Below, in pieces: positions 1,940 to 25,634 of a stretch of 64,000 nt of DNA. Where the stretch lies: NCBI GenBank assembly GCA_938030745.1, contig CALHIP010000007.1:13180-77179 (forward strand). Direction: 5' to 3'. The translations under genes and the position numbers were made by a program. The stretch is from an uncultured Patescibacteria group bacterium (GTDB lineage Bacteria > Patescibacteriota > Patescibacteriia > UBA2591 > CALHIP01). The stretch's first letter is position 1. The number at the start of each line of letters is the position of its first letter. The notes beneath the pieces are model-generated. The model made no database searches and had not been told where the DNA came from. It saw nothing but the letters and a program-made list of their open reading frames with translations.

Positions 1940-2827
1940 ATGATTTTATCATTTGATATCGGAGGAACAAAAATTGCAGTTGGATTAGTAAAGAAGAATC
2001 AGATTTTTAATTTTCAAAAATTAAACTGGCAAGGAAAAATTACCCAACAAAAGTTTCTAAATCAATTAATAGAGATTATTTTAAATTTTAAATCTTCAAT
2101 TTCGAATTTGAAAGCAATTACTATAGCTGTTGCTGGTCAAGTTAATAAAAAAGGTGAAGTTTTCCTAACTCGCAATTTAATCAGAAAAAAAACTAAAATT
2201 TCCCTTAAAAAAATTCTTCAACAAAAATTTCATTTACCAGTCTTTGTTGAAAACGATGCTAATTGTTTTACTTTAGGTGAAGCAGTTTTTGGTCAAGGGA
2301 AAAATAAAGATTTTCTTCTTGGTTTAACAATTGGCTCTGGAATTGGTGGTGGAATAGTGATTGATAAAAAAATCATTAAAGGAAAAGATGGTTTTGCTGG
2401 AGAATTTGGTCATTTGATTTTAGAAGTTGGAGGAAGAAAATGTTCTTGTGGAAAAAGGGGTTGTTTTGAGGCCTATGCTTCTGCTCGAGCTATGGAAGAA
2501 TTTTATTTTGAATTAACCGGTAGAAAAAAAACAACTTTCCAAATTAAAGAAGAATTTTTAAAGAAAAAATCAGATGCAATTTTGGCTGTTAATGAAACAG
2601 CTAGATGGTTAAGTATTGGAATAGCTAATTTAGTTAATATTTTTAATCCAGATCTAATTGTTTTAGGAGGTGGAATGATTAATTTCCCATCTTTTCTTAA
2701 AATTGCTATTAAAAATTTTAAATCTTGGCTTTTGGTTAAAGAGGCAAAAACAAAAATTTTAGTTTCTAATTTAAATGAAAAAGCTACTCTTTTAGGTGCA
2801 AGTCTTTTAACTTATGAAAAAAGATAA
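1940..2827 (+). CDS. ROK-family sugar kinase (glucokinase-like)
   Basis: It has the N-terminal FDIGGTKIAVGLV ATPase motif. The ROK zinc motif is CSCGKRGCFEAYAS. Confidence 0.8.
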   Translation: MILSFDIGGTKIAVGLVKKNQIFNFQKLNWQGKITQQKFLNQLIEIILNFKSSISNLKAITIAVAGQVNKKGEVFLTRNLIRKKTKISLKKILQQKFHLPVFVENDANCFTLGEAVFGQGKNKDFLLGLTIGSGIGGGIVIDKKIIKGKDGFAGEFGHLILEVGGRKCSCGKRGCFEAYASARAMEEFYFELTGRKKTTFQIKEEFLKKKSDAILAVNETARWLSIGIANLVNIFNPDLIVLGGGMINFPSFLKIAIKNFKSWLLVKEAKTKILVSNLNEKATLLGASLLTYEKR

Positions 2828-5633
2828 AACAAAATGGTTAAGAAGAGAAATTTATCGATATCCTAAAAGAAGAAAATTTAAATTTTTAAAGATTCTTTTT
2901 CTTTTGCTTTTTTTTCTTTTTTCATTAAGTATTTCTGCATTTGGAATTATCTATTTCTGGGTAGCTAAAGATTTACCCGATCCAAATAAACTTCTTGAAA
3001 GGGAGGTTAGTCAGTCAACAAAGATTTATGATAGAGAAGGTAAAACAGTTCTTTATGAGATTTTTACCAAAGAAAGAAGAACTTTAGTTGAACTTTCTGA
3101 CATTCCTCAAAATATGATTAGAGCAACAATTGCTGCTGAAGATCGTCATTTTTTTGAACATAAAGGATTTAATTTAAAAAGTATGGCCCGAGCGATGCTG
3201 ATTAATTTTTTAAAAGGAGGCAAAATTCAAGGCGGTTCAACTATTACCCAGCAACTAATTAAAAATGCAATTTTGAAACCAGAAAAAACTTATCTAAGAA
3301 AGATCCGCGAACTCATTCTTGCTTATCAGATTGAGAAAAAATTTTCAAAAGAAGAAATTTTAAAAATGTATTTTAACGAAATTCCTTATGGTTCAAATGC
3401 TTACGGTGTTGAGGCAGCTAGTCAAATTTATTTTGGTAAAAATGTTTCTCAACTTACTTTAGATGAAGCAGCAACTTTAGCAGCCCTACCAAAAGCACCA
3501 ACTTATTATTCTCCATATGGACAAAATAAGGAAAAATTAATCGCTCGGAGAGATTATATTCTCGATCAGATGCTTGAATTAGAATTTATTTCAGAAGAAG
3601 AGTATAAAGAGGCAAAAGATACTGATACTTTAGCTAAAATTAAACCAAAAAAAGAAAGAATGATTGCTCCTCATTTTGTTGAATTTGTTAAATCGCAACT
3701 AATTGAAAAATATGGCCATCGAATGGTTGAACAAGGAGGCCTAAAAGTCATTACTACTTTAGATTTAAAAAAACAAAAAATTGCTGAAGAAGTAATTAAG
3801 AAAAATGAAGAAAATTTAAAAAAATTTAAAGCAAATAATGCAGCCTTAGTTGCTTTAGATGTCAAGACTGGTGAAATCTTGGCAATGGTTGGTTCAAAAG
3901 ATTACTTTGATGAGTCAATTGATGGTCAAGTCAATGTGACTTTATCAGAGCGTCAACCAGGTTCTTCTTTTAAACCGATCGTTTATGCTAAGCTTTTTGA
4001 AAAAGGTTATACTCCAGAGACAATTTTATTTGATGTAATAACTAATTTTGGTCCTGATGGAAGTGGAAAAGATTATATTCCTAAAGATTATGATGAAAAA
4101 GAAAGGGGACCAATTACTATAAGAAAAGCTCTGGCTGGTTCTTTAAATATTCCTGCTGTTAAAGCTCTTTATTTAGCTGGTATTGATCAAGTTTTAGATC
4201 TAGCTGAAAAAATGGGTTATACAACTTTTAAAGATCGATCTCGTTTCGGTTTAGCTATCGTTCTAGGCGGAGCGGAAGTAAAACTTTTAGAACATGTTGC
4301 TGCTTTTTCTATTTTTGCTCGCGAGGGAATAAAAATTCCGATTATTTCTATTTTAAAAGTTGAAGACCCTTCAGGTAAAATCCTAGAAGAAAAACAAGAG
4401 CCAATCCCAGAAAAAGTTTTGGAACCACAAATAGCTAGACAGATTAATGATATTTTATCTGATAATTCAGCTCGAAGTTTTATCTTTGGTGAAAAAAATT
4501 ATTTAACCTTACCAGACAGACCAGTTGCAGCAAAAACTGGAACAACTCAAAATTGGCGAGATGCTTGGACAATTGGTTATACACCTTCTTTAGTAGCTGG
4601 GGTTTGGGTTGGCAATACAAGAGGTGAAGAAATGAAAAAAGGAGCTGATGGTTCAAAAATAGCTGCACCAATTTGGCAAGCTTTCATGAAAGAAGCAACA
4701 AAAAATACGCCAGTTGAAAATTTTACTCCGCCAGAACCAGAAAATGTTGAAAAGCCAATTTTAAGAGGTGAAATTCCTGGTGAAATTACCCTCAAAATTG
4801 ACCGAGCTTCAGGTAAATTAGCTACCAATTTAACACCACCAAGTTATATTATTGAAAAGAAATATAGGACTCGTTATTATACTATTCTTCATTTTGTTGA
4901 TAAAGATAATCCAAGAGGTCCAGCTCCAGAAAAACCTGAAAATGATCCGATGTATTTTCGTTGGCAAAAAGCAATTGAAGATTGGGCAAAAAGACAGGGT
5001 ATTGTTTTTGAACCTATTCCAACTGAATATGATGATTTACACACTTTAGAAAATAGACCAAAAATAAAAATCAATTGGCCAATTGAAGGAATGAGTTTTA
5101 TTCCTGGACAAATTTTAGTTGATGTTTCAGCTGAAGCGCCAAGAGGAATTAGAAAAGTTGAAGGTTTAATCAATGGAATTTCTTTTGATAAAGTTTATAA
5201 TCCACCTTATCAACTTTCTTTAAATACTTCAGGTCTTTTACCAGGAAGTCAGAAAATTATTGTTTCTGCTTGTGATGATATTGATAATTGTCAAACCTCT
5301 TCGGTAAATATTAATTTAATTCAAAGCTCAAATCCAACAATTTTCTGGCTCTCTCCAAAAAACAATGAGAATATTTATCCTGAAAATTTTCCTTATGTTA
5401 TTTCTCTTTCTTTACCTCTTGTTAGGATCAAGGAAATAAAAGTTTATACTCAAAGAATTGGCTATTTAGAAAAACAATTACTTGCTCAGATTAATTTTCC
5501 AACTACTGCTCGAATTAATATTACTTGGCTTGATATTCCTTCAGCTGGTCAATATGAACTTTCATTAGAAGCAATAAGTGAGAATAATCAACCAATTTCT
5601 GCTGAAAAAATAATTGTTAATTTCTATGATTAA
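2814..5633 (+). CDS. class A penicillin-binding protein (bifunctional transglycosylase/transpeptidase, PBP1A-type) with a long C-terminal extension
   Basis: It has an N-terminal transmembrane segment. GT51 motifs are present (EDRHFFEHKGF, GGSTITQQLIKN). The transpeptidase motifs SSFKP and KTGT are present. About 300 aa extend past the transpeptidase domain. Confidence 0.85.
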   Translation: MKKDKTKWLRREIYRYPKRRKFKFLKILFLLLFFLFSLSISAFGIIYFWVAKDLPDPNKLLEREVSQSTKIYDREGKTVLYEIFTKERRTLVELSDIPQNMIRATIAAEDRHFFEHKGFNLKSMARAMLINFLKGGKIQGGSTITQQLIKNAILKPEKTYLRKIRELILAYQIEKKFSKEEILKMYFNEIPYGSNAYGVEAASQIYFGKNVSQLTLDEAATLAALPKAPTYYSPYGQNKEKLIARRDYILDQMLELEFISEEEYKEAKDTDTLAKIKPKKERMIAPHFVEFVKSQLIEKYGHRMVEQGGLKVITTLDLKKQKIAEEVIKKNEENLKKFKANNAALVALDVKTGEILAMVGSKDYFDESIDGQVNVTLSERQPGSSFKPIVYAKLFEKGYTPETILFDVITNFGPDGSGKDYIPKDYDEKERGPITIRKALAGSLNIPAVKALYLAGIDQVLDLAEKMGYTTFKDRSRFGLAIVLGGAEVKLLEHVAAFSIFAREGIKIPIISILKVEDPSGKILEEKQEPIPEKVLEPQIARQINDILSDNSARSFIFGEKNYLTLPDRPVAAKTGTTQNWRDAWTIGYTPSLVAGVWVGNTRGEEMKKGADGSKIAAPIWQAFMKEATKNTPVENFTPPEPENVEKPILRGEIPGEITLKIDRASGKLATNLTPPSYIIEKKYRTRYYTILHFVDKDNPRGPAPEKPENDPMYFRWQKAIEDWAKRQGIVFEPIPTEYDDLHTLENRPKIKINWPIEGMSFIPGQILVDVSAEAPRGIRKVEGLINGISFDKVYNPPYQLSLNTSGLLPGSQKIIVSACDDIDNCQTSSVNINLIQSSNPTIFWLSPKNNENIYPENFPYVISLSLPLVRIKEIKVYTQRIGYLEKQLLAQINFPTTARINITWLDIPSAGQYELSLEAISENNQPISAEKIIVNFYD

Positions 5634-5922
5634 AAAAATTGATTCTTTTTTATGGCAATCAATCGCAAAAGCTGGCCTTGAAAAAGAAATGATTGCTGCT
5701 TTAGTTATTGAAGAATTTAAAAAAATTCTAGTTAAAAAATTTGGCCAAAAAATTTTAAACAAAGTCAAAATTTTATCTTTCAAAAATCAAATTTTAACTA
5801 TTTCAGTTTTAAGTTCAGTTATTGCTCAAGAAATAAAATTGAATCAAGAAAATTTTCTTAAAAAGATTAATAAAAAATTTAATAAAAAATTAGTTGAAAG
5901 GATCCGTTTTTTAGCTAAATAA
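5614..5922 (+). CDS. DUF721 / DciA-like small protein
   Basis: It is about 100 aa. Its pattern (FLWQSIAKAGLEKEMIAALVIEEFKKIL ... ILTISVLSSVIAQEIKLNQENFLKKINKKF) resembles the DUF721 / DciA fold. A perfect DnaA box lies immediately downstream. Confidence 0.45.
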   Translation: MLISMIKKIDSFLWQSIAKAGLEKEMIAALVIEEFKKILVKKFGQKILNKVKILSFKNQILTISVLSSVIAQEIKLNQENFLKKINKKFNKKLVERIRFLAK

Positions 5923-6052
5923 ATCTGTGGATAACTTTTTTGATTTATTTGGTATAATAAAAACGATGAAAAATTATTCCCAAAAATTTAATTTCAGCCC
6001 CTTTTTCGCTAAGGGCCGGTCCGCCTGATGATTTTTAATTTGACTAAGGCGG

Positions 6053-6086
6053 AATCGGCTTCTAAAAAGAAGCCGATTTTTATTTT
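6053..6086 (+). terminator. rho-independent terminator hairpin
   Basis: The hairpin AATCGGCTTC-TAAAAA-GAAGCCGATT is followed by TTTTATTTTT. Confidence 0.6.
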
Positions 6087-6123
6087 TAGGTAAAAAAAAT
6101 AATTAATGAAAAGGAGGAAGAAA

Positions 6124-6294
6124 ATGAAAAAGAAGAAAACAAAACAAGATCCATGGTTTGAGCCATGGGAATCAAAAAAACAAAAAGAAAAAAAACACAA
6201 AAAAGGAGGAAAAAAAGGAAACCAAACAACCAAGAAAAATCAAACTTCACTGAATTTTCAGGAGTTATTCGGATCATTCGGTTTAGGCTGTTAA
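6124..6294 (+). CDS. small, very basic lysine-rich protein of about 56 aa; an alternative start is the upstream ATG at 6106
   Basis: The protein sequence is MKKKKTKQDPWFEPWESKKQKEKKHKKGGKKGNQTTKKNQTSLNFQELFGSFGLGC. A strong SD (AAAGGAGG) sits 6 nt upstream of the 6124 ATG. The gene is bracketed by two intrinsic terminators. Confidence 0.4.
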   Translation: MKKKKTKQDPWFEPWESKKQKEKKHKKGGKKGNQTTKKNQTSLNFQELFGSFGLGC

Positions 6295-6303
6295 CTTAAA
6301 ACC

Positions 6304-6339
6304 AGACGGGAGTAAAATTTACTCCCGTCTTTTTCTTTC
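6304..6339 (+). terminator. rho-independent terminator hairpin
   Basis: The hairpin AGACGGGAGT-AAAATTT-ACTCCCGTCT is followed by TTTTCTTTC. Confidence 0.7.
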
Positions 6340-6346
6340 ATCATTG

Positions 6347-6371
6347 TGTTAACACGTTAATCTGTTAATAC
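6347..6371. repeat. copy A of a 25-nt imperfect direct repeat (TGTTAACACGTTAATCTGTTAATAC); copy B is at 7276..7300
   Basis: Copies A and B are identical at 21 of 25 positions and lie in the same orientation. They flank the SplB-like gene on both sides. Confidence 0.5.
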
Positions 6372-6376
6372 ATTAC

Positions 6377-6400
6377 AAAATGTTCCACGTGGAACATTTT
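6377..6400. promoter_or_regulatory. 24-bp perfect palindrome AAAATGTTCCAC|GTGGAACATTTT
   Basis: It is an exact inverted repeat with a CACGTG core. It lies 32 bp downstream of the SplB-like stop codon. It could be an operator, or a hairpin terminator for the convergent transcripts. Confidence 0.4.
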
Positions 6401-6431
6401 AAAAATTTCGTTTATTTAAGCCAAAATTTGG

Positions 6432-7229
6432 CTAAAAAGTAATTTTAACCGGTATTTTGAAATATTTACCTAAAAATTCAATTTCTTCTTTTAATTGGTT
6501 TTCATACTTTCTTCTATTTTCAAAAAAGATTTTCTTATATTCAGATAAAATTTTTGGAAAATGTAATTTTAAAGCTTTTTCTAAACCTTGCCAATTTTCT
6601 TTTTTTGTATTTAGAGTATCAAACCAAATTCTATCTACTTTATTTTTTAAAATTCCAAAAATTTGCTTTAAATTAGTAAAATAAGGCAAAATAGGTCCAA
6701 TAAAGGCATAAGTTGAAAGACCAGCTTTTTTTAATTTCTTTAAAGCCTCAATTCTTTTTTCAATTGAACTTGCTCCTGGTTCTAAAATCATTTGGCTTCT
6801 TTTATTTAAAGTAGTAATGGTAAAACCAATTTTAATGAAAGAATAAAATTTTTTAAAAATATCTAAATCTTTTAAAACTAAATCAGATTTAGTTAAAATT
6901 GAAACAGGCCATTGATATTTTGCCAAAATTTTTAAACATTCTCGAGTAATCTGATATTGCTTTTCTAAAGGATTATAAGGATCAGTAATAGTGGAAAAGA
7001 AAACCTCTTCTTTTTCCTTTTCTGTAATTTCTTTTTCTAAAACTTCTGGCGCATTTAATTTAATTTCCAAAAAATTGCCCCATTTTTCTTCCCTTCCAAT
7101 TTTTTTAATAAAGTGTTGGTTATAACAATAAACACAACCATGAAGACAACCAATATAAGGATTTAAAGTATAGCCACCAAATTTGGAGCGAGTCAATATC
7201 GATTTTGCTTTAATAAAACGAATTTTCAT
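6432..7229 (-). CDS. SplB-like radical SAM protein (DNA repair photolyase / spore-photoproduct-lyase family, COG1533-like)
   Basis: The N-terminal motif is NPYIGCLHGCVYCY, which fits CxxxCxxC. It is about 265 aa and has no SPASM domain. Confidence 0.7.
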   Translation of the reverse strand: MKIRFIKAKSILTRSKFGGYTLNPYIGCLHGCVYCYNQHFIKKIGREEKWGNFLEIKLNAPEVLEKEITEKEKEEVFFSTITDPYNPLEKQYQITRECLKILAKYQWPVSILTKSDLVLKDLDIFKKFYSFIKIGFTITTLNKRSQMILEPGASSIEKRIEALKKLKKAGLSTYAFIGPILPYFTNLKQIFGILKNKVDRIWFDTLNTKKENWQGLEKALKLHFPKILSEYKKIFFENRRKYENQLKEEIEFLGKYFKIPVKITF

Positions 7230-7275
7230 ATAAATTATTCAATCTTCTATTTATTTTACCAAATTCATTATATTG

Positions 7276-7300
7276 TATTAACACATTAACATGTTAATAC
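7276..7300. repeat. copy B of the 25-nt direct repeat (TATTAACACATTAACATGTTAATAC)
   Basis: See copy A. Copy B lies between the SplB-like start codon and the 3' end of tRNA-Glu. Confidence 0.5.
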
Positions 7301-7325
7301 GATAAAAGAAAGAATTTTTATTAAC

Positions 7326-7396
7326 AGCCCCACCGGGATTCGAACCCGGGTTACCACATTGAAAGCGTGGAGTCCTAGACCACTAGACGATGGGGC
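7326..7396 (-). tRNA. tRNA-Glu (anticodon TTC)
   Basis: The reverse complement folds as a cloverleaf. It has a GCCCCAT acceptor stem, an anticodon loop CTTTCAA and a T-loop GGTTCGAATCC. Confidence 0.85.
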
Positions 7397-7483
7397 CGTT
7401 TAAAAATAATTTTAACTATTTTTTTTCCTTTGTCAAATAAAAATTTTTAAAAAATAGAAATTTTTGATAAAATTGAATCTGAT

Positions 7484-8569
7484 ATGATTATTTTAGGCAT
7501 TGAGACAAGTTGTGACGAAACCGCAGTTGCGATTTTAGAAATTCAAAATTCGAATTTTAAAATTCGAAAGAATGTAGTTTCATCTCAAGTGAAAATCCAC
7601 GCAAAATATGGTGGAATTGTTCCTGAATTAGCTGCCAGAAAACACGCAGAAAATATCATTGGGATTTTAGAAACAGCTTTATCATTTAAACCAGAAATTA
7701 GAGATTGGAAATCAAAAATTGAAAATTATGTAGATGCTATTGCGGTAACAAATGGACCAGGATTAATTACCTCTTTATTAGTTGGAGTTGAAGCAGCTAA
7801 AACATTAGCTTTTTTAGCGAAAAAACCATTGATTCCTGTTAACCATTTAGCTGGACACATTTATGCTAATTTTATTGACCAGTCTCAAATCTTTCAAAAT
7901 TTATTTCCAGCTATTTGTTTAGTTGTTTCTGGCGGACACACAGAACTAATTTTAATGAAAGACTTTGAAAATTTTAAAAAAATTGGCCAGACTTTAGATG
8001 ATGCAGCTGGTGAATGTTTTGATAAAGTAGCAAAAATTTTAGGATTGGGATATCCTGGCGGACCAGCAATTGCTAAGTGCGCTCAACAAAGCAAATTTAA
8101 AAAATTCCAAACAAATTCAAAATTTTCAATTAAATTACCTAGGCCAATGATAGATAGCGGTGATTTTAATTTTAGTTTTTCTGGCTTAAAAACCGCTGTT
8201 TTATATAAAATTCGTGAACTTGGCAATATTAAAACTCAAAAATTTATTTCGGAAATTTGTGCTGAGACCCAGCAGGCAATTATTGATGTTTTAATTGCTA
8301 AAACTATTCATGCTTCACAAAAATTTAATGCAAAATCAATTATTTTAGGTGGCGGAGTTGTAGCTAATGAAGAATTGCGAAAACAGATAAAATTAAAAAT
8401 TAAAAATTTAAAAATTAAACTTTTGATTCCGCCAAAAATTTTATGTACTGATAATGCAGCAATGATTGCTGCTGGTGGATATTTTAAATTAAAAAAAATA
8501 CCAAGATCAAAATGGTTAATCAAATTCGATTGGCAAAAAATAAAGGTTGATCCAAATTTAGAAATTTAA
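7484..8569 (+). CDS. tsaD: tRNA N6-adenosine threonylcarbamoyltransferase TsaD (Kae1/Gcp family)
   Basis: The N-terminus is MIILGIETSCDETAVAIL. The HxxH metal site (HLAGHIY) and the GGVVANEELR motif are present. Confidence 0.9.
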   Translation: MIILGIETSCDETAVAILEIQNSNFKIRKNVVSSQVKIHAKYGGIVPELAARKHAENIIGILETALSFKPEIRDWKSKIENYVDAIAVTNGPGLITSLLVGVEAAKTLAFLAKKPLIPVNHLAGHIYANFIDQSQIFQNLFPAICLVVSGGHTELILMKDFENFKKIGQTLDDAAGECFDKVAKILGLGYPGGPAIAKCAQQSKFKKFQTNSKFSIKLPRPMIDSGDFNFSFSGLKTAVLYKIRELGNIKTQKFISEICAETQQAIIDVLIAKTIHASQKFNAKSIILGGGVVANEELRKQIKLKIKNLKIKLLIPPKILCTDNAAMIAAGGYFKLKKIPRSKWLIKFDWQKIKVDPNLEI

Positions 8570-9145
8570 ATAAAAAGGTTTTATCTTTAAATCTACAATT
8601 TTATCTCGGTAAACATAAATTATGGTTGTTTCACCAAATTTTGTAATTGCATTTCTTTCATTTACATCTGTATGTCCGTGTAAAAAATATTTTGGTTTTT
8701 TTTGTTGAATATACTCTCTTAAAGCTTTAAATCCTTGATGAGTTAATTCTTCAGGCTTGTCATTTATCCCATAAGGCGGAGAATGGGCAATCATTACATC
8801 AACAGATGGAAAATCTTTCAATAATTCAAAAGCTTCTTCTTGAGTATACATTATTGCTTCTTGACTATTCTTGTAACGAACACTACCTTCAAATCCGCCG
8901 AAGACTAAATTCTCAAATTCAAAAGTTTTCAAATGGATGTTAATAATGCCAAGTGATTCAAAATATTTACCAGAATCGTGATTTCCATATACTCCAATTT
9001 TTGGAATATTAGTTATCTCGGCTAATTCTTTAAGGGCAAAGAAATCTAAATCTCCAAGAGTACAAATTAATTTAACAGGTTCTCTTTCAAGAATCTTCTT
9101 TATCTTCTCTCTTGGTGGTCTATCAGCAATTGCTAAAATTCTCAT
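8558..9145 (-). CDS. calcineurin-like metallophosphoesterase (YfcE/MJ0936-like)
   Basis: Phosphoesterase motifs are present: D at MRILAIAD, GDLD, GNHD, and the GHTD/HGH motifs. Confidence 0.7.
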   Translation of the reverse strand: MRILAIADRPPREKIKKILEREPVKLICTLGDLDFFALKELAEITNIPKIGVYGNHDSGKYFESLGIINIHLKTFEFENLVFGGFEGSVRYKNSQEAIMYTQEEAFELLKDFPSVDVMIAHSPPYGINDKPEELTHQGFKALREYIQQKKPKYFLHGHTDVNERNAITKFGETTIIYVYRDKIVDLKIKPFYLNF

Positions 9146-14958: not shown

Positions 14959-16335
14959 TTATCGATTATAAATCCTCTGCCGGATAAGCTCTATTTCTTG
15001 CTTAATCCTTCCTTCTTCTTCAACCTCTTTTTTAATCTTCTGCCAAGCATGAATGGCAGTGGTATGATCTCGATTACCTAATTCTTTACCAATTAAAGGA
15101 AAAGAGGCATTAATTTCTTCTCTTAATAGATACATCGCTACTTGACGAGGAATAACCAGTTCTTTTTTTCGAGAAGGACTGATCAATTCTGAAAGTTTTA
15201 GATTATAAAAGTCAGCAACAATCTGAAGTAATTCTTTTGGCGAAAGAGCCGCTTTCCTTGGGAGATTAATTAAGCTATCAACAATTTTTTTTGTCTCTTC
15301 TAAAGAAAATGGCAATTTGTTTAACTCATGGAAAGCAATGACTTTATTTAAAGCACCTTCAAGTTGGCGGACATTATTTTGGATATGAGTGGCAATATAT
15401 TGAACAATTTCCTTTGGTAGCTCAACATTTCTTTCCTTTGCTTTTCTTTCTAGAATAGCAATTCTTGTTTCTAAATCAGGTGGTGAAATATCAACAATCA
15501 TACCTCCTTCAAAGCGAGAAATTAGTCTTTCTTCAATAGCAGGAATAACCCTTGGTGGTCGATCAGAAGTTAAAACAATTTGTTTATCTTTCTGATAAAG
15601 AGTATTAAAGGTGTGAAAAAATTCTTCCTGAACTGCTTCTTTGCCAGCAAAAAATTGGACATCATCAACCAAAAGGACATCTTGAACTCGATAATTTTTT
15701 TTAAAGACATCCATTTTTCTCTCTCTAATTGCTTTAATGAACTCATTAGTAAATCTTTCAGCACTAATATATAATACTTTCTTTTTTTTATCAGTCTTTA
15801 AAATCTTATTCCCGATTGCCTGAAGAAGATGTGTTTTTCCTAAACCAACTCCACCGTAAATAAAAAGAGGGTTATATTTTTTTCCAGGAGCTTGAGCAAC
15901 AGCTACGGAGGCAGCAAAAGCAAGTTCATTTCCTTTACCGACAACAAAATTTTCAAAAGAGTAACGAGAATTTAAACCATGTTTGTTAGTCTCTAATTCT
16001 TTCGTTTCACTCTCTTCTTTAATTATTTCTTCTAAACTAACAAATCTTTTTTCTATTGAAGGAGGAATTTTTGTCTCAATTTTATAAACGATATTTTTTA
16101 TCTTATTATTAGTTGCATTTTGTAAAATATCTAAAATCATTTTATGATATTTTTTCTCAAACCAGAGTCTAGTAAATTCGTTTGGTAAAGAAATAACAAC
16201 TGTTTCGCCGTCATCTTCAATTGAAGAAATATAGGCATTTTTAAACCAAGTCATAAAATTAGCCCGTGAAAGCTGGAGCTCCATTTCTCCTAAAACAATT
16301 TGCCATAATTTTTCTTTTGTTAATTCGTTATTCAT
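14959..16335 (-). CDS. dnaA: chromosomal replication initiator DnaA
   Basis: The AAA+ Walker A is GGVGLGKTHL. The C-terminal DNA-binding signature is GKELGNRDHTTAIHAWQKI. Confidence 0.9.
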   Translation of the reverse strand: MNNELTKEKLWQIVLGEMELQLSRANFMTWFKNAYISSIEDDGETVVISLPNEFTRLWFEKKYHKMILDILQNATNNKIKNIVYKIETKIPPSIEKRFVSLEEIIKEESETKELETNKHGLNSRYSFENFVVGKGNELAFAASVAVAQAPGKKYNPLFIYGGVGLGKTHLLQAIGNKILKTDKKKKVLYISAERFTNEFIKAIRERKMDVFKKNYRVQDVLLVDDVQFFAGKEAVQEEFFHTFNTLYQKDKQIVLTSDRPPRVIPAIEERLISRFEGGMIVDISPPDLETRIAILERKAKERNVELPKEIVQYIATHIQNNVRQLEGALNKVIAFHELNKLPFSLEETKKIVDSLINLPRKAALSPKELLQIVADFYNLKLSELISPSRKKELVIPRQVAMYLLREEINASFPLIGKELGNRDHTTAIHAWQKIKKEVEEEGRIKQEIELIRQRIYNR

Positions 16336-17851: not shown

Positions 17852-19969
17852 ATGATTTTAGAAAGATTAGAAATTTTTGGTTTTAAATCTTTCGCAAAAA
17901 AAGCGGTTTTAACATTTCCTTTAGGAATTACCTGCATTGTTGGTCCAAATGGTTGTGGTAAATCAAACTTGGCTGACTCAATTCGTTGGGTTTTAGGAGA
18001 ACAAAGTTTTAAAAATTTAAGAATAGAAAAAAGCGACGATCTCATCTTTTCTTCCGGAAAAAAGAGAGTAAATTTTTCTCAAGTGACTCTTTATTTGAAA
18101 GATGATAAAAAAGGAGAAAGTTTGGAAATTACAAGAAAATTATTCAGGAATGGAGAGAATGAATATTTTATTAATCACCAGCCGGTAAAAAAAGAAGAAA
18201 TTTCTTTCCTTTTAGCAAAAATAAATTTTGGTCAGAAAAGTTATTCGGTAATTGGTCAAGGAATGGTTGACTGGATTCTTTATTCTTCAAAACAAGAAAG
18301 AAAAGAATTTTTTGATGAAGCAGCAGGAATTAAAGAATATCAAATTAAAAAAATAAAAGCAGAGGCAAAAATTAAAAGAACATTATTAAATCTTTCTCAA
18401 GCTGAGATTGCTATTAAAGAGGTTGAACCAAGATTAAAGTTTTTATCCCGACAAATTAAAAGATGGGAAAAACGTCAAAAAATAGAAGAAGAAATTATTA
18501 ATCTTAAAAAGGACTATTATGGAGCGAAATTATCTAAATTAGAAGAAGAAAAAAAAGAAATTGACAGGAAAATTGAGAAAGAGAAAAAAATCTTAGAAAA
18601 AGAGGAAAAAGATTTTGAATTTTTTCAAAAAAAGATAAAAAAAATAGCTATTGATGAACCTAATCAAGAACTTGAACTTCTTAAAAAAGATTGGCAGGAA
18701 ATTTTAGAAAAAAGAAATAAACTTTTAGAAGAAAAAATAACTTACCAAAGTATAGCTAAGAAAGAAGAAAAAATAACATTTGAAGAAGGAGATTTATTAA
18801 AATTTAAAAATTCTCTCGAAGACATTCTTTTTCAACAAGAAAAATTTATTAAAAGATTAAATGAAATTAAGAAATTAGAAGAAATTGTAAAGATCAAGGA
18901 AAAAGCTAATGAGATCTTTCAAAAGATTAAAAATTTATCAATTTTTTTCTCAAAAATTACAACCCGAGAAAAAAGGGATGAAAAAGAATTAGAAAAAAAA
19001 GAGAAAGAATTGGAAAATATTAATAAAGAACTTAAAGTTTTAGAAGATAAATTAAAAGATTTTTTAATAATTGAAAACAAAAAAAGAAAAGAAATGTTGG
19101 AAATCCAAAAAGAACTTCAAGAAAAGCAAAATATCATCTCTTCCTTAAATTATAAAATAAAAGATTTAGAAATTGAAAAAGCAAGAATTGAAACAAAGGA
19201 GGAAGATTTAAAAAATGAAATCGAAAGAGAAACAAATTTTAAAGATTTATCACTTCTTTCTAAAATTAATTTAACTGATGAAGAAGAGGAAAAAATTTTT
19301 TCTCGAATTAGAAGATTAGAAAAAGAATTGGAACTTATTGGTAGTTTTGATGAAAATCTCTTTCAAGAATATAAAGAAACTAAAGAAAAATATGATTTCC
19401 TTTCTTCACAAATTAATGATTTAAAAAAAAGTATTTCCTCCTTACAGAAAATTAAAAGAAAGTTAGAAGAAAAAATTAAAGATAAATTTTTCTCTAATTT
19501 TAACAAAATAAATGAAAATTTTAAACAATATTTTAAATTTTTGTTTAAAGGAGGAGAAGCAAAATTAGTTTTGGAAGAATTATCATCAAATGAAGCATCA
19601 GAAAATAAAGAACGATCAGATGAAATAAATTATGGAATAGAAATCTATGCTCGACCGCCGAGAAAAAAAATAAAAACAATACATTCTCTTTCTGGCGGAG
19701 AAAAGGCATTAACTTCTTTAGCATTACTTTTTGCTATTTTAAAAACTCAAAAACCACCATTTATTGTTTTAGATGAGGTTGATGCTGCTTTAGATGAAGT
19801 AAACTCATCAAGATTTGTAGAAATAATGAAAGAACTTTCAAAAGATACTCAATTTATTGTGATTACTCATAATCAAATAACAATGGAATCAGCTGTCGCT
19901 CTTTATGGAATAACGATGGATAAAGAAGGAGTTTCCCATCTTGTTTCTTTTAAATTAGAAAGTCATTAA
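17852..19969 (+). CDS. smc: SMC-family chromosome segregation ATPase, unusually short at 705 aa
   Basis: The N-terminus is MILERLEIFGFKSFA with a Walker A (GPNGCGKSN). The C-terminus carries the signature LSGGEKALTSLALLF and a Walker B (FIVLDEVDAALD). It lies in an rnc-smc synteny block. The coiled-coil and hinge region is only about 450 aa. Confidence 0.7.
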   Translation: MILERLEIFGFKSFAKKAVLTFPLGITCIVGPNGCGKSNLADSIRWVLGEQSFKNLRIEKSDDLIFSSGKKRVNFSQVTLYLKDDKKGESLEITRKLFRNGENEYFINHQPVKKEEISFLLAKINFGQKSYSVIGQGMVDWILYSSKQERKEFFDEAAGIKEYQIKKIKAEAKIKRTLLNLSQAEIAIKEVEPRLKFLSRQIKRWEKRQKIEEEIINLKKDYYGAKLSKLEEEKKEIDRKIEKEKKILEKEEKDFEFFQKKIKKIAIDEPNQELELLKKDWQEILEKRNKLLEEKITYQSIAKKEEKITFEEGDLLKFKNSLEDILFQQEKFIKRLNEIKKLEEIVKIKEKANEIFQKIKNLSIFFSKITTREKRDEKELEKKEKELENINKELKVLEDKLKDFLIIENKKRKEMLEIQKELQEKQNIISSLNYKIKDLEIEKARIETKEEDLKNEIERETNFKDLSLLSKINLTDEEEEKIFSRIRRLEKELELIGSFDENLFQEYKETKEKYDFLSSQINDLKKSISSLQKIKRKLEEKIKDKFFSNFNKINENFKQYFKFLFKGGEAKLVLEELSSNEASENKERSDEINYGIEIYARPPRKKIKTIHSLSGGEKALTSLALLFAILKTQKPPFIVLDEVDAALDEVNSSRFVEIMKELSKDTQFIVITHNQITMESAVALYGITMDKEGVSHLVSFKLESH

Positions 19970-21673: not shown

Positions 21674-21678
21674 AACTT

Positions 21679-21750
21679 GCCCTCATAGCTCAATGGATAG
21701 AGCAGATCCGTCCTAAGGATAAGATGGGGGTTCAATTCCCTCTGAGGGCA
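21679..21750 (+). tRNA. tRNA-Arg (anticodon CCT)
   Basis: Cloverleaf features are acceptor GCCCTCA/TGAGGGC, anticodon loop GTCCTAA and T-loop GGTTCAATTCC. Confidence 0.75.
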
Positions 21751-21764
21751 TAAATTTTTTAATT

Positions 21765-21835
21765 GGGCTCATAGGTAAATGGTATACCGCAGTCTTCGCA
21801 TGACTGAATTCTGGGTTCGATTCCCAGTGAGTCCA
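21765..21835 (+). tRNA. tRNA-Ala (anticodon CGC) with the G3:U70 identity pair
   Basis: The acceptor is GGGCTCA/TGAGTCC, giving G3:U70. The anticodon loop is TTCGCAT. The T-loop is GGTTCGATTCC. Confidence 0.8.
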
Positions 21836-21838
21836 AAA

Positions 21839-21920
21839 GCCGCGGTGGCGAAATTGGAAAACGCACTGGGCTTAGGACCCAGGGGGGAAACCCTTGAGAG
21901 TTCGAGTCTCTCCCGCGGCA
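21839..21920 (+). tRNA. tRNA-Leu (anticodon TAG) with a long variable arm
   Basis: It is 82 nt. The anticodon loop is CTTAGGA and the T-loop is AGTTCGAGTCT. The long variable arm fits a class II tRNA. Confidence 0.85.
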
Positions 21921-21934
21921 AGAATAAAAATTTT

Positions 21935-22285
21935 ATGAAAACAAAAATTATTGTTTTGATTTTCATTATCTTTTTTGGTTTGCTAGTTAATTATGAAGAA
22001 GAGACTGGTTCTTTTTTGAAAATTTTTCCAATTGTTAAAAATCCATCTTTAGCTTTTATATCTCTTTATAAAAATAACAACAAAAATTTCTTTCAAAAAG
22101 AAAACTTCTGGGGTTGGCCATTTCCTTATTGGTTTAAAAAAGAATTTAATTTAAAATCTTTATTTTTCGATTTAATTTTTTATTTAATTATCTGGTTAAT
22201 TCTTATTTTCTTCTGGTGGTTTATTTCTGCTTTTAAAAGATTTCATCAAAAAAGGAAAAAACCTCCTTATAAATTTACTTTGTAA
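21935..22285 (+). CDS. hypothetical membrane protein of about 116 aa, taken from the downstream portion of ORF 21779..22285
   Basis: Hydrophobic N- and C-terminal segments flank an aromatic-rich middle. The upstream part of the tracked ORF overlaps the tRNAs and is not coding. Confidence 0.3.
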   Translation: MKTKIIVLIFIIFFGLLVNYEEETGSFLKIFPIVKNPSLAFISLYKNNNKNFFQKENFWGWPFPYWFKKEFNLKSLFFDLIFYLIIWLILIFFWWFISAFKRFHQKRKKPPYKFTL

Positions 22286-22303
22286 AATTATCCACAGTTT
22301 TTC

Positions 22304-22332
22304 TTGACTTTTTAAATTTTATTCTTTATAAT
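22304..22332 (+). promoter_or_regulatory. sigma70-type promoter for the 23S-5S rRNA transcript (TTGACT-N17-TATAAT)
   Basis: The hexamers read directly are TTGACT at 22304-22309 and TATAAT at 22327-22332. A perfect DnaA box (TTATCCACA) abuts at 22288-22296. Confidence 0.55.
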
Positions 22333-22382
22333 ATAATTAAAATACAATGTTTATGAAACCAAAAAACCTTAAATTAAAAATT

Positions 22383-22465
22383 CCAAGCGGTTAATTTTGG
22401 TCATTTTCGCCTTAACCAAAAAAACCGCTTGGAAAAGCGGTTTTTTGGTTTCCGCTCTTTTAAAA
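22383..22465 (+). promoter_or_regulatory. rRNA leader with mutually exclusive hairpins, one of them terminator-like, and a boxA-like element (CGCTCTTTTAAAA)
   Basis: CCAAGCGGTT (22383-92) can pair with AACCGCTTGG (22423-32). Alternatively ACCGCTT-GGAA-AAGCGGT plus a T-tract at 22424-22449 forms an intrinsic-terminator-like hairpin. AGCGG/CCGCT precedes the boxA-like sequence at 22453-22465. Confidence 0.4.
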
Positions 22466-22487
22466 TTTTAAAAATAAAGTCTTATAC

Positions 22488-25468
<2,981 letters not shown>

Positions 25469-25511
25469 CCCATATAAGCCTTTATTTTTAAAAATTTAAT
25501 TTTTCTCATTT

Positions 25512-25634
<123 letters not shown>

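Follow-up and report, generated by a model that had tools for sequence, protein, structure and literature searches.

MetJ binds DNA as ribbon-helix-helix (RHH) dimers on tandem 8-bp palindromic met boxes. To our knowledge, almost nothing is known about transcriptional regulation in the Patescibacteria clade treated here. We analyzed a 64-kb stretch of a genome of Patescibacteria type (contig CALHIP010000007.1, "the window"; GC ~0.29) in which a radical S-adenosylmethionine (rSAM) gene lies next to a tRNA-Glu gene and between two similar 25-nt repeats, with a 24-bp palindrome past its 3' end. Radical SAM genes of the SplB type (COG1533) are recurrent members of SOS regulons in several phyla (PMC8565304, PMC7739468). 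The 16-bp core of the palindrome, TGTTCCACGTGGAACA, is identical at 16/16 positions to parS2/parS3 of P. aeruginosa and parS of P. putida (PMC4368675, PMC7022226).

Our analysis indicates that the two repeats are probably copies of a clade-specific regulator motif, one before the rSAM gene and one before a neighbour since lost, and that the palindrome is probably a 3' hairpin. Overall, the locus is ordinary regulatory anatomy plus two modestly interesting details. It would record a gene loss that left an orphan site mimicking flanking repeats, and it carries a perfect parS on a conserved putative terminator hairpin. The features at its centre are as follows.

6346-6371, + strand: site A, three TTAA-centred 8-bp boxes (GTGTTAACACGTTAATCTGTTAATAC), scoring 27.4 bits on the + strand
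6377-6400, no strand assigned: exact 24-bp palindrome AAAATGTTCCACGTGGAACATTTT, unique in the window; 11-bp stem, 4-nt loop, U4
6419-6433, - strand: small first hairpin AGCCAAA-UUU-UGGCU, overlapping the rSAM stop codon
6432-7229, - strand: rSAM gene, 265 aa, Pfam Radical_SAM
7253-7281, - strand: predicted rSAM promoter, with a -35-like TTAATA at 7281-7276, a 17-nt spacer and a TG-extended -10 TAAAAT at 7258-7253
7275-7300, no strand assigned: site B, three 8-bp boxes (GTATTAACACATTAACATGTTAATAC), self-complementary at 22/26 positions
7324-7398, - strand: tRNA-Glu(UUC), the upstream neighbour of the rSAM gene, conserved in syntenic relatives
7409-7436, - strand: predicted tRNA-Glu promoter, strong and sigma-70-like (TTGACA-16-TAAAAT, 11/12 matches)

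A tandem-box motif upstream of the radical SAM gene

Repeat A (6347-6371) and repeat B (7276-7300) are identical at 21 of 25 positions and lie on either side of the rSAM gene, exactly as a prior sequence-only reading of this DNA had described. A degenerate pattern spanning both repeats occurs only at these two places in the 64 kb, compared to none in 100 shuffles. Taken as 26-mers, the repeats are near-palindromes (self-complementary at 20/26 positions for A and 22/26 for B), so their shared orientation, correctly reported in that reading, says little for repeat B. Site B lies 45 nt 5' of the rSAM ATG and 23-24 nt past the 3' end of tRNA-Glu; the distance from repeat B to the tRNA had been given as 26 nt, and we measure 23 nt.

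Using a genome scan, a protein search and contig look-ups, we assembled 11 distinct related loci (55-78% protein identity). The nearest public relatives of the rSAM gene are all labelled as Patescibacteria metagenome-assembled genomes. Across these loci we found a recurring motif with the core AnYGTGTTAACACRTTAA, whose full form comprises 2-4 tandem 8-bp TGTTAACA-like boxes with a TTAA core every 8 bp, and which is present in 1-8 copies per related locus. Ten loci have the motif, and in nine of them it lies 45-155 nt 5' of the rSAM start (the window, L001, L004, L005, L006, L131, L133, L137 and L138). In a tenth, L002, an rve_3 transposase parts the sites from the rSAM gene and its promoter, which we read as an insertion sequence (IS) landing between site and promoter. 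The same locus carries a 38-nt tandem duplication with two TTAAC sites (L002 2503-2580) 5' of the transposase (2737-3862).

The motif is not confined to the rSAM gene. It lies 37-81 nt 5' of a convergent YfiH/Cu-oxidase_4-type gene in L001, L004, L006, L133 and L137, 184 nt 5' of a truncated YfiH in L131, and 5' of a LigT-type gene in L137 and of an acyltransferase gene in L138. In L004-L006 it flanks tRNA-Glu on either side. A two-box site has a direction, which in most cases is toward the following gene. Alignment of the upstream regions shows conservation only of the boxes and of a TG-extended -10 element (TGnTAAAAT before rSAM, including the block in the window's rSAM promoter, and TGnTATAAT before YfiH), as would be expected where a regulator binds next to a promoter. 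These findings define a concrete cis-element for an uncultivated Patescibacteria clade: a 16-20-nt motif whose apparent targets are a gene of the spore photoproduct lyase (SPL) type, a YfiH-like gene and LigT. We then scored the window with a weight matrix built solely from 35 sites of the related loci, leaving the window out. Only 6335-6382 and 7264-7311 exceed 8 bits in the 64 kb, and the search for further repeat copies that the sequence-only reading had proposed likewise returns just sites A and B in the window.

The arrangement resembles MetJ operators in having 2-4 contiguous palindromic 8-bp boxes, with an 8-bp period, upstream of or over promoters. It differs in the box itself (TGTTAACA-like here compared to AGACGTCT for MetJ), in that no RHH protein or other regulator was found near the sites, and in that no link to methionine genes was seen. 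The likeness, drawn by analogy, is therefore one of design only and not of membership. We also compared the motif with the PrfA box, CIRCE/HrcA, NrdR boxes, CtrA sites and the E. coli Zur box, as generally known, and dropped each of them on account of unfit spacing or half-sites.

By this analogy, a protein that binds DNA as a dimer would occupy the boxes cooperatively, each 8-bp box taking one dimer, and would control the TG-extended -10 promoters just downstream. The predicted -35 element of the rSAM promoter (TTAATA) falls within site B, so we propose that binding there would repress the rSAM gene. Binding at site B could also stop read-through from the strong tRNA-Glu promoter; the stretch from tRNA-Glu to the rSAM gene contains no terminator in our scan.

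Site A is best explained as a site that has lost its gene. It scores best on the + strand, the direction of the convergent YfiH-like gene, and can be aligned with the sites upstream of YfiH in five relatives, with ~33 nt of similarity to L001, the window's sister locus in our tree. No YfiH homologue is present in the window. YfiH is truncated, split or missing in L131, L137, L138, L005 and L002, so its loss is common in the group. The simplest reading is a deletion in the window lineage that would have run from the hairpin's edge up to that of the upstream site and taken out the YfiH-like gene together with its promoter, making site A an orphan. Such a deletion would have left site A 5 nt from the palindrome, and thereby made the rSAM gene look like a lone gene framed by direct repeats. 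The sequence-only reading had offered, as one of two explanations, that the repeats are tandem operators. In its general form this idea is supported: the gene and its flanks are shared by related genomes, and the motif precedes both rSAM and other genes. As an account of two operators for the rSAM gene it is not quite right, since repeat A appears to have belonged to a convergent gene that is now lost.

Several observations weigh against an operator role. About five of ~29 sites are off-promoter or wrongly pointed (L005 4944 and 5117, L006 5823, L133 9357 and L137 3476). The usual place of the site in relatives is 13-35 nt 5' of the -10 element and not over it, so repression is not the sole possibility. 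We found no DNA-binding protein to fill the proposed role: none of the unannotated ORFs close to the sites is conserved from locus to locus or matches a helix-turn-helix or RHH domain. Finally, our survey of the organism's own genome for further regulon members spans the 64-kb window.

We also scanned more widely for the three-box pattern TTAACAYRTTAAYRTGTTAA. In metagenomes it matched at least 120 stretches, a large share of them contigs of GC ~0.40 from a few JGI metagenomes. No rSAM homologue occurs among the matches listed, and hence these yield no further regulon members. Long arrays with TTAA every 8 bp are common in those GC ~0.40 contigs (among the matches listed, L011-L130), and have no relation to the rSAM locus. 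Viral contigs scanned in the same way gave three unrelated matches, including a phage iteron region in L008, where tandem GTGTTAAT octamers lie beside other iterons (3380-3450), also unrelated to the rSAM locus. A literature search on GTGTTAACAC returned primers and unrelated text only.

The other explanation offered in the sequence-only reading was that the repeats are att-like scars of an integrated element that brought the rSAM gene to the 3' side of tRNA-Glu. The comparison of the tRNA-Glu locus that it had suggested bears directly on this, and involves three further features of the window.

5614-5922, + strand: dciA
6304-6330, + strand: GC-rich hairpin followed by a T-run, the terminator of a 62-aa ORF and the left boundary of the region
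7484-8569, + strand: tsaD

We found that L004, L005 and L006 share the window's gene order, mirrored: PBP1-DciA-(YfiH-like or PDDEXK)-rSAM-tRNA-Glu-TsaD-TsaE-aminoacyl-tRNA synthetase. In all three, rSAM directly follows tRNA-Glu within the same outer flanks, which makes the adjacency ancestral for the group and not a recent insertion. L133 retains TsaD...rSAM-YfiH plus extra genes, and L131 retains rSAM...YfiH-DciA-PBP. As in tRNA-gene-targeted islands, the rSAM gene adjoins a tRNA 3' end and has similar short sequences on both sides. It also has different neighbours in L001, L002, L136 and L137, and its coding sequence has a GC of 0.247, somewhat under the 0.30-0.32 of TsaD, PBP and ValRS; neighbouring DciA, however, is lower still (0.207). 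We looked for a duplication of the tRNA, an integrase, and an unoccupied site in relatives, and found none of the three. The longest string common to the tRNA and the repeats or intergenic regions is 6 nt, no integrase or recombinase is encoded at 2.8-12 kb, and the motif is not confined to the ends of the supposed cassette but occurs many times per locus, including upstream of the tRNA. Repeat A, moreover, is orthologous to the promoter-proximal site of another gene. An att origin of the repeats is thus barely credible, and the idea of a tRNA-site island carrying a repair gene can be set aside as a false lead. The cassette had also been described as insulated by strong terminators; we confirm one GC-rich terminator (6304-6330), belonging to the small ORF on the opposite strand, and none on the tRNA-Glu side.

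Alternatively, genes could be shuffled at a hotspot between dciA and tsaD, with the TTAAC-box arrays as its recombination or junction sites instead of transcription-factor operators. The content between these flanks is variable (YfiH, PDDEXK, LigT, MamF, VIT1, acyltransferase, LAGLIDADG, IS), sites lie at most junctions, some of them between convergent 3' ends, and the putative window deletion ends exactly at a site. In L001, the rSAM-YfiH pair is bounded by two sites in another context. Against this, the loci have no conserved recombinase, and the sites face the same way as the gene after them, a short and regular distance from its start and from a conserved -10. Several sites can also lie inside a single intergenic region, and IS and homing-endonuclease insertions account for part of the variability. 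The minority of off-promoter sites and the variable dciA-tsaD content leave this explanation a small probability, and we consider it improbable. A more specific version, which we regard as very unlikely, is that the arrays are junctions of an undescribed integron-like cassette exchange, with no recognisable integrase at the locus, that shuffles rSAM, YfiH-like, LigT, VIT1, PDDEXK and acyltransferase genes at an origin-proximal hotspot.

The radical SAM protein and possible SOS control

The product of the rSAM gene matches Radical_SAM (PF04055) at 54.6 bits, above the cut-off of 29.5, and the cysteines of its CxxxCxxC cluster motif (C28, C32 and C35) are invariant in 28 homologues. Its scores fall below the cut-offs of more specific models: 24.4 bits for the SPL family PF20903 (cut-off 27), and 24 bits for TIGR04070 (cut-off 400). 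At 265 aa, the protein is also shorter than the 338-position SPL profile. The nearest NCBIfam models are rSAM_mob_pairB, PA0069 and Rv2578c, all with scores far under cut-off; the match to rSAM_mob_pairB (TIGR04470, radical SAM mobile pair protein B) reaches 174.9 bits, compared to an equivalog cut-off of 410. When a profile of the 28 homologues was compared with the PDB, spore photoproduct lyase was the sole clear relative (E = 2e-4), with one other chain at E = 0.15. By these scores the protein belongs to a loose SPL/COG1533-type group, beneath the cut-off of every named family. The label of a SplB-like DNA-repair gene given to it in the sequence-only reading is thus only loosely right: it holds in the broad COG1533 sense and not for SplB proper, as the SPL score is sub-threshold even though SPL is the only clear solved relative.

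In its specific form, the operator explanation of the sequence-only reading would make the boxes targets of a damage-responsive repressor, LexA (SOS) or another. COG1533 SplB-type genes are SOS-regulated in several phyla (PMC8565304, PMC7739468), and in LexA control of splB-type genes, as here, a palindromic site lies upstream of the promoter (PMC8565304). The motif also occurs at a 2H/LigT-type phosphoesterase gene, which fits such a regulon. However, the motif shows no likeness to the LexA motifs quoted in these papers; within the window, recX and ssb have no copy of it near them; and its co-targets (YfiH-like, acyltransferase and VIT1 region) are not classical SOS genes. Neither lexA nor recA is encoded in the window. 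We therefore judge SOS-type control unlikely.

The 3' hairpin and its parS core

The palindrome between repeat A and the rSAM gene is exact, as had been reported, and it belongs to a conserved element. A GTTC-N6-GAAC dyad lies ~40-75 nt past the rSAM stop in the window and in 11 related loci, including L139. It is found nowhere else in those loci, and is present whatever the neighbouring genes. The dyad is retained in L136 (59% identity), and L135 (64%) is the only locus examined that lacks it. Its centres vary (ACGT, TCAA, TTGA, CTGG, GCCGGG, CTTGAC and CTCGAC), and its arms are invariant. As RNA, the dyad is predicted to form a 10-11-bp hairpin followed by U4-6, with a smaller hairpin ahead of it; in relatives this is a GCTTA/TAAGC hairpin related to the first hairpin at 6419-6433. 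The rSAM 3' untranslated region of the window folds with -17.6 kcal/mol (z = -3.25). The position of the YfiH stop codon relative to the hairpin changes between loci (ahead of it, within it or past it), so coding constraint does not explain the hairpin's conservation.

The hairpin fits a shared terminator of the convergent rSAM/YfiH pair. Like a bidirectional intrinsic terminator, it sits between an A-run and a T-run, at convergent 3' ends, in a fixed position and with a variable loop. Unlike one, it has an AT-rich stem with only 3 G-C pairs, and its arms are invariant instead of covarying. Four of six predicted pairs never vary, and the one compensatory pair is an AU-to-UA change. Two points count against a simple terminator role: the arms stay invariant down to 54-59% protein identity, more than a plain terminator needs, and our terminator scan did not flag 6377-6400. 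The invariant arms hint at some added sequence-specific constraint.

Another reading makes the palindrome the target of a homodimeric homing endonuclease of the LAGLIDADG type, which would recognise the conserved 10-bp arms and leave the 4-bp centre uncontacted. Conserved arms around a variable centre suit targets of this kind, such as those known for I-CreI-type enzymes, and LAGLIDADG_1 ORFs lie ~22 nt past the hairpin in L131/L132 and L138/L139. The insertion leaves the hairpin unsplit, however, and the hairpin is kept in lineages that have no endonuclease, including the distant L136; no LAGLIDADG gene is present in the window. We give this explanation very little weight. The ORF itself encodes a 165-aa LAGLIDADG_1 homing endonuclease (L131 1306-1803 and L138 1864-2361, also in L132 and L139). 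In the lineages that carry it, the YfiH-like gene is truncated or replaced.

The core of the palindrome (6381-6396) is TGTTCCACGTGGAACA, which matches the 16-bp parS tGTTNCACGTGAAACa. The sequence-only reading had noted the CACGTG core, which is present, and had recognised neither the canonical parS nor the conserved 3' hairpin. We consider it possible, though somewhat doubtful, that the palindrome is a working parS centromere, at which ParB would act in segregating the origin and loading SMC; this role would be compatible with that of a hairpin. Besides the full match to the Pseudomonas sites, TGTTCCACGTGGAACA is present as a single copy in 64 kb, where 0.04 are expected within three mismatches. 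The palindrome lies 8,559 nt from dnaA (14959-16335), an SMC-like gene is found at 17852-19969, and the ACGT centre is common to the window and L001. In these respects (identical 16-mer, single copy, 8.6 kb from dnaA) the element resembles a chromosomal parS.

Other evidence runs the opposite way. The CACGTG/ACGT centre is restricted to the window and its sister locus: ten other related loci keep the arms and have other centres, which remove CAC/GTG half-site bases. The element also follows the 3' end of the rSAM gene and not the origin, as in L001, L002, L136 and L137. No ParB-like ORF was seen by eye among the translations of the window's ORFs, a subset of which was compared with Pfam, and no parAB genes lie beside dnaA. 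A literature search on ParB in bacteria of the candidate phyla radiation gave nothing useful, and GC skew with DnaA-box counts placed oriC no closer than "near dnaA".

The ACGT loop makes the DNA a perfect parS, and we propose that any canonical ParB of the organism would also load there. The site may be a centromere born from an older hairpin, or a chance look-alike that would still recruit ParB. The dnaA gene itself has two near-consensus DnaA boxes upstream (16392 and 16414), and is followed by nusB, an RNase III gene and a gene for a short, 705-aa SMC_N protein.

Neighbouring genes and features

The ORFs between 2814 and 12038 encode PBP1, DciA, a basic 62-aa protein, rSAM, TsaD, a metallophosphoesterase, TsaE and ValRS. 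A comparison of 5850-7480 with Rfam, at gathering or relaxed thresholds, matched the tRNA alone. Between dciA and the left boundary of the region lie two further features.

6051-6080, strand not assigned: strong terminator in the non-coding stretch 3' of dciA
6106-6294, + strand: 62-aa ORF, very basic and rich in lysine, with AAGGAGG as ribosome-binding site and a GC-rich terminator of its own

The terminator of the 62-aa ORF (6304-6330) forms a hairpin of 12 pairs, 6 of them GC (-18.8 kcal/mol, z = -6.6). The ORF matches nothing in Pfam or NCBIfam, and none of the related loci has a homologue; it may be confined to this lineage, or be no gene at all. The non-coding stretch 3' of dciA (5923-6090) combines a perfect DnaA box (5926-5934), a TGgTATAAT-like -10 near 5950 and the terminator at 6051-6080. 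It may encode a small RNA of ~115 nt on the + strand, one with no Rfam family match.

Farther along the window, genes for tRNA-Arg, tRNA-Ala and tRNA-Leu precede 23S and 5S rRNA genes (21678-25631). The 16S gene is absent from the 64 kb, so the rRNA genes appear to be unlinked. In L004 and L006, a conserved 84-87-aa ORF with no family match lies between tsaD and tsaE (L004 2082-2336 and L006 2237-2500), an interval that in the window is occupied by the metallophosphoesterase gene (8558-9145).

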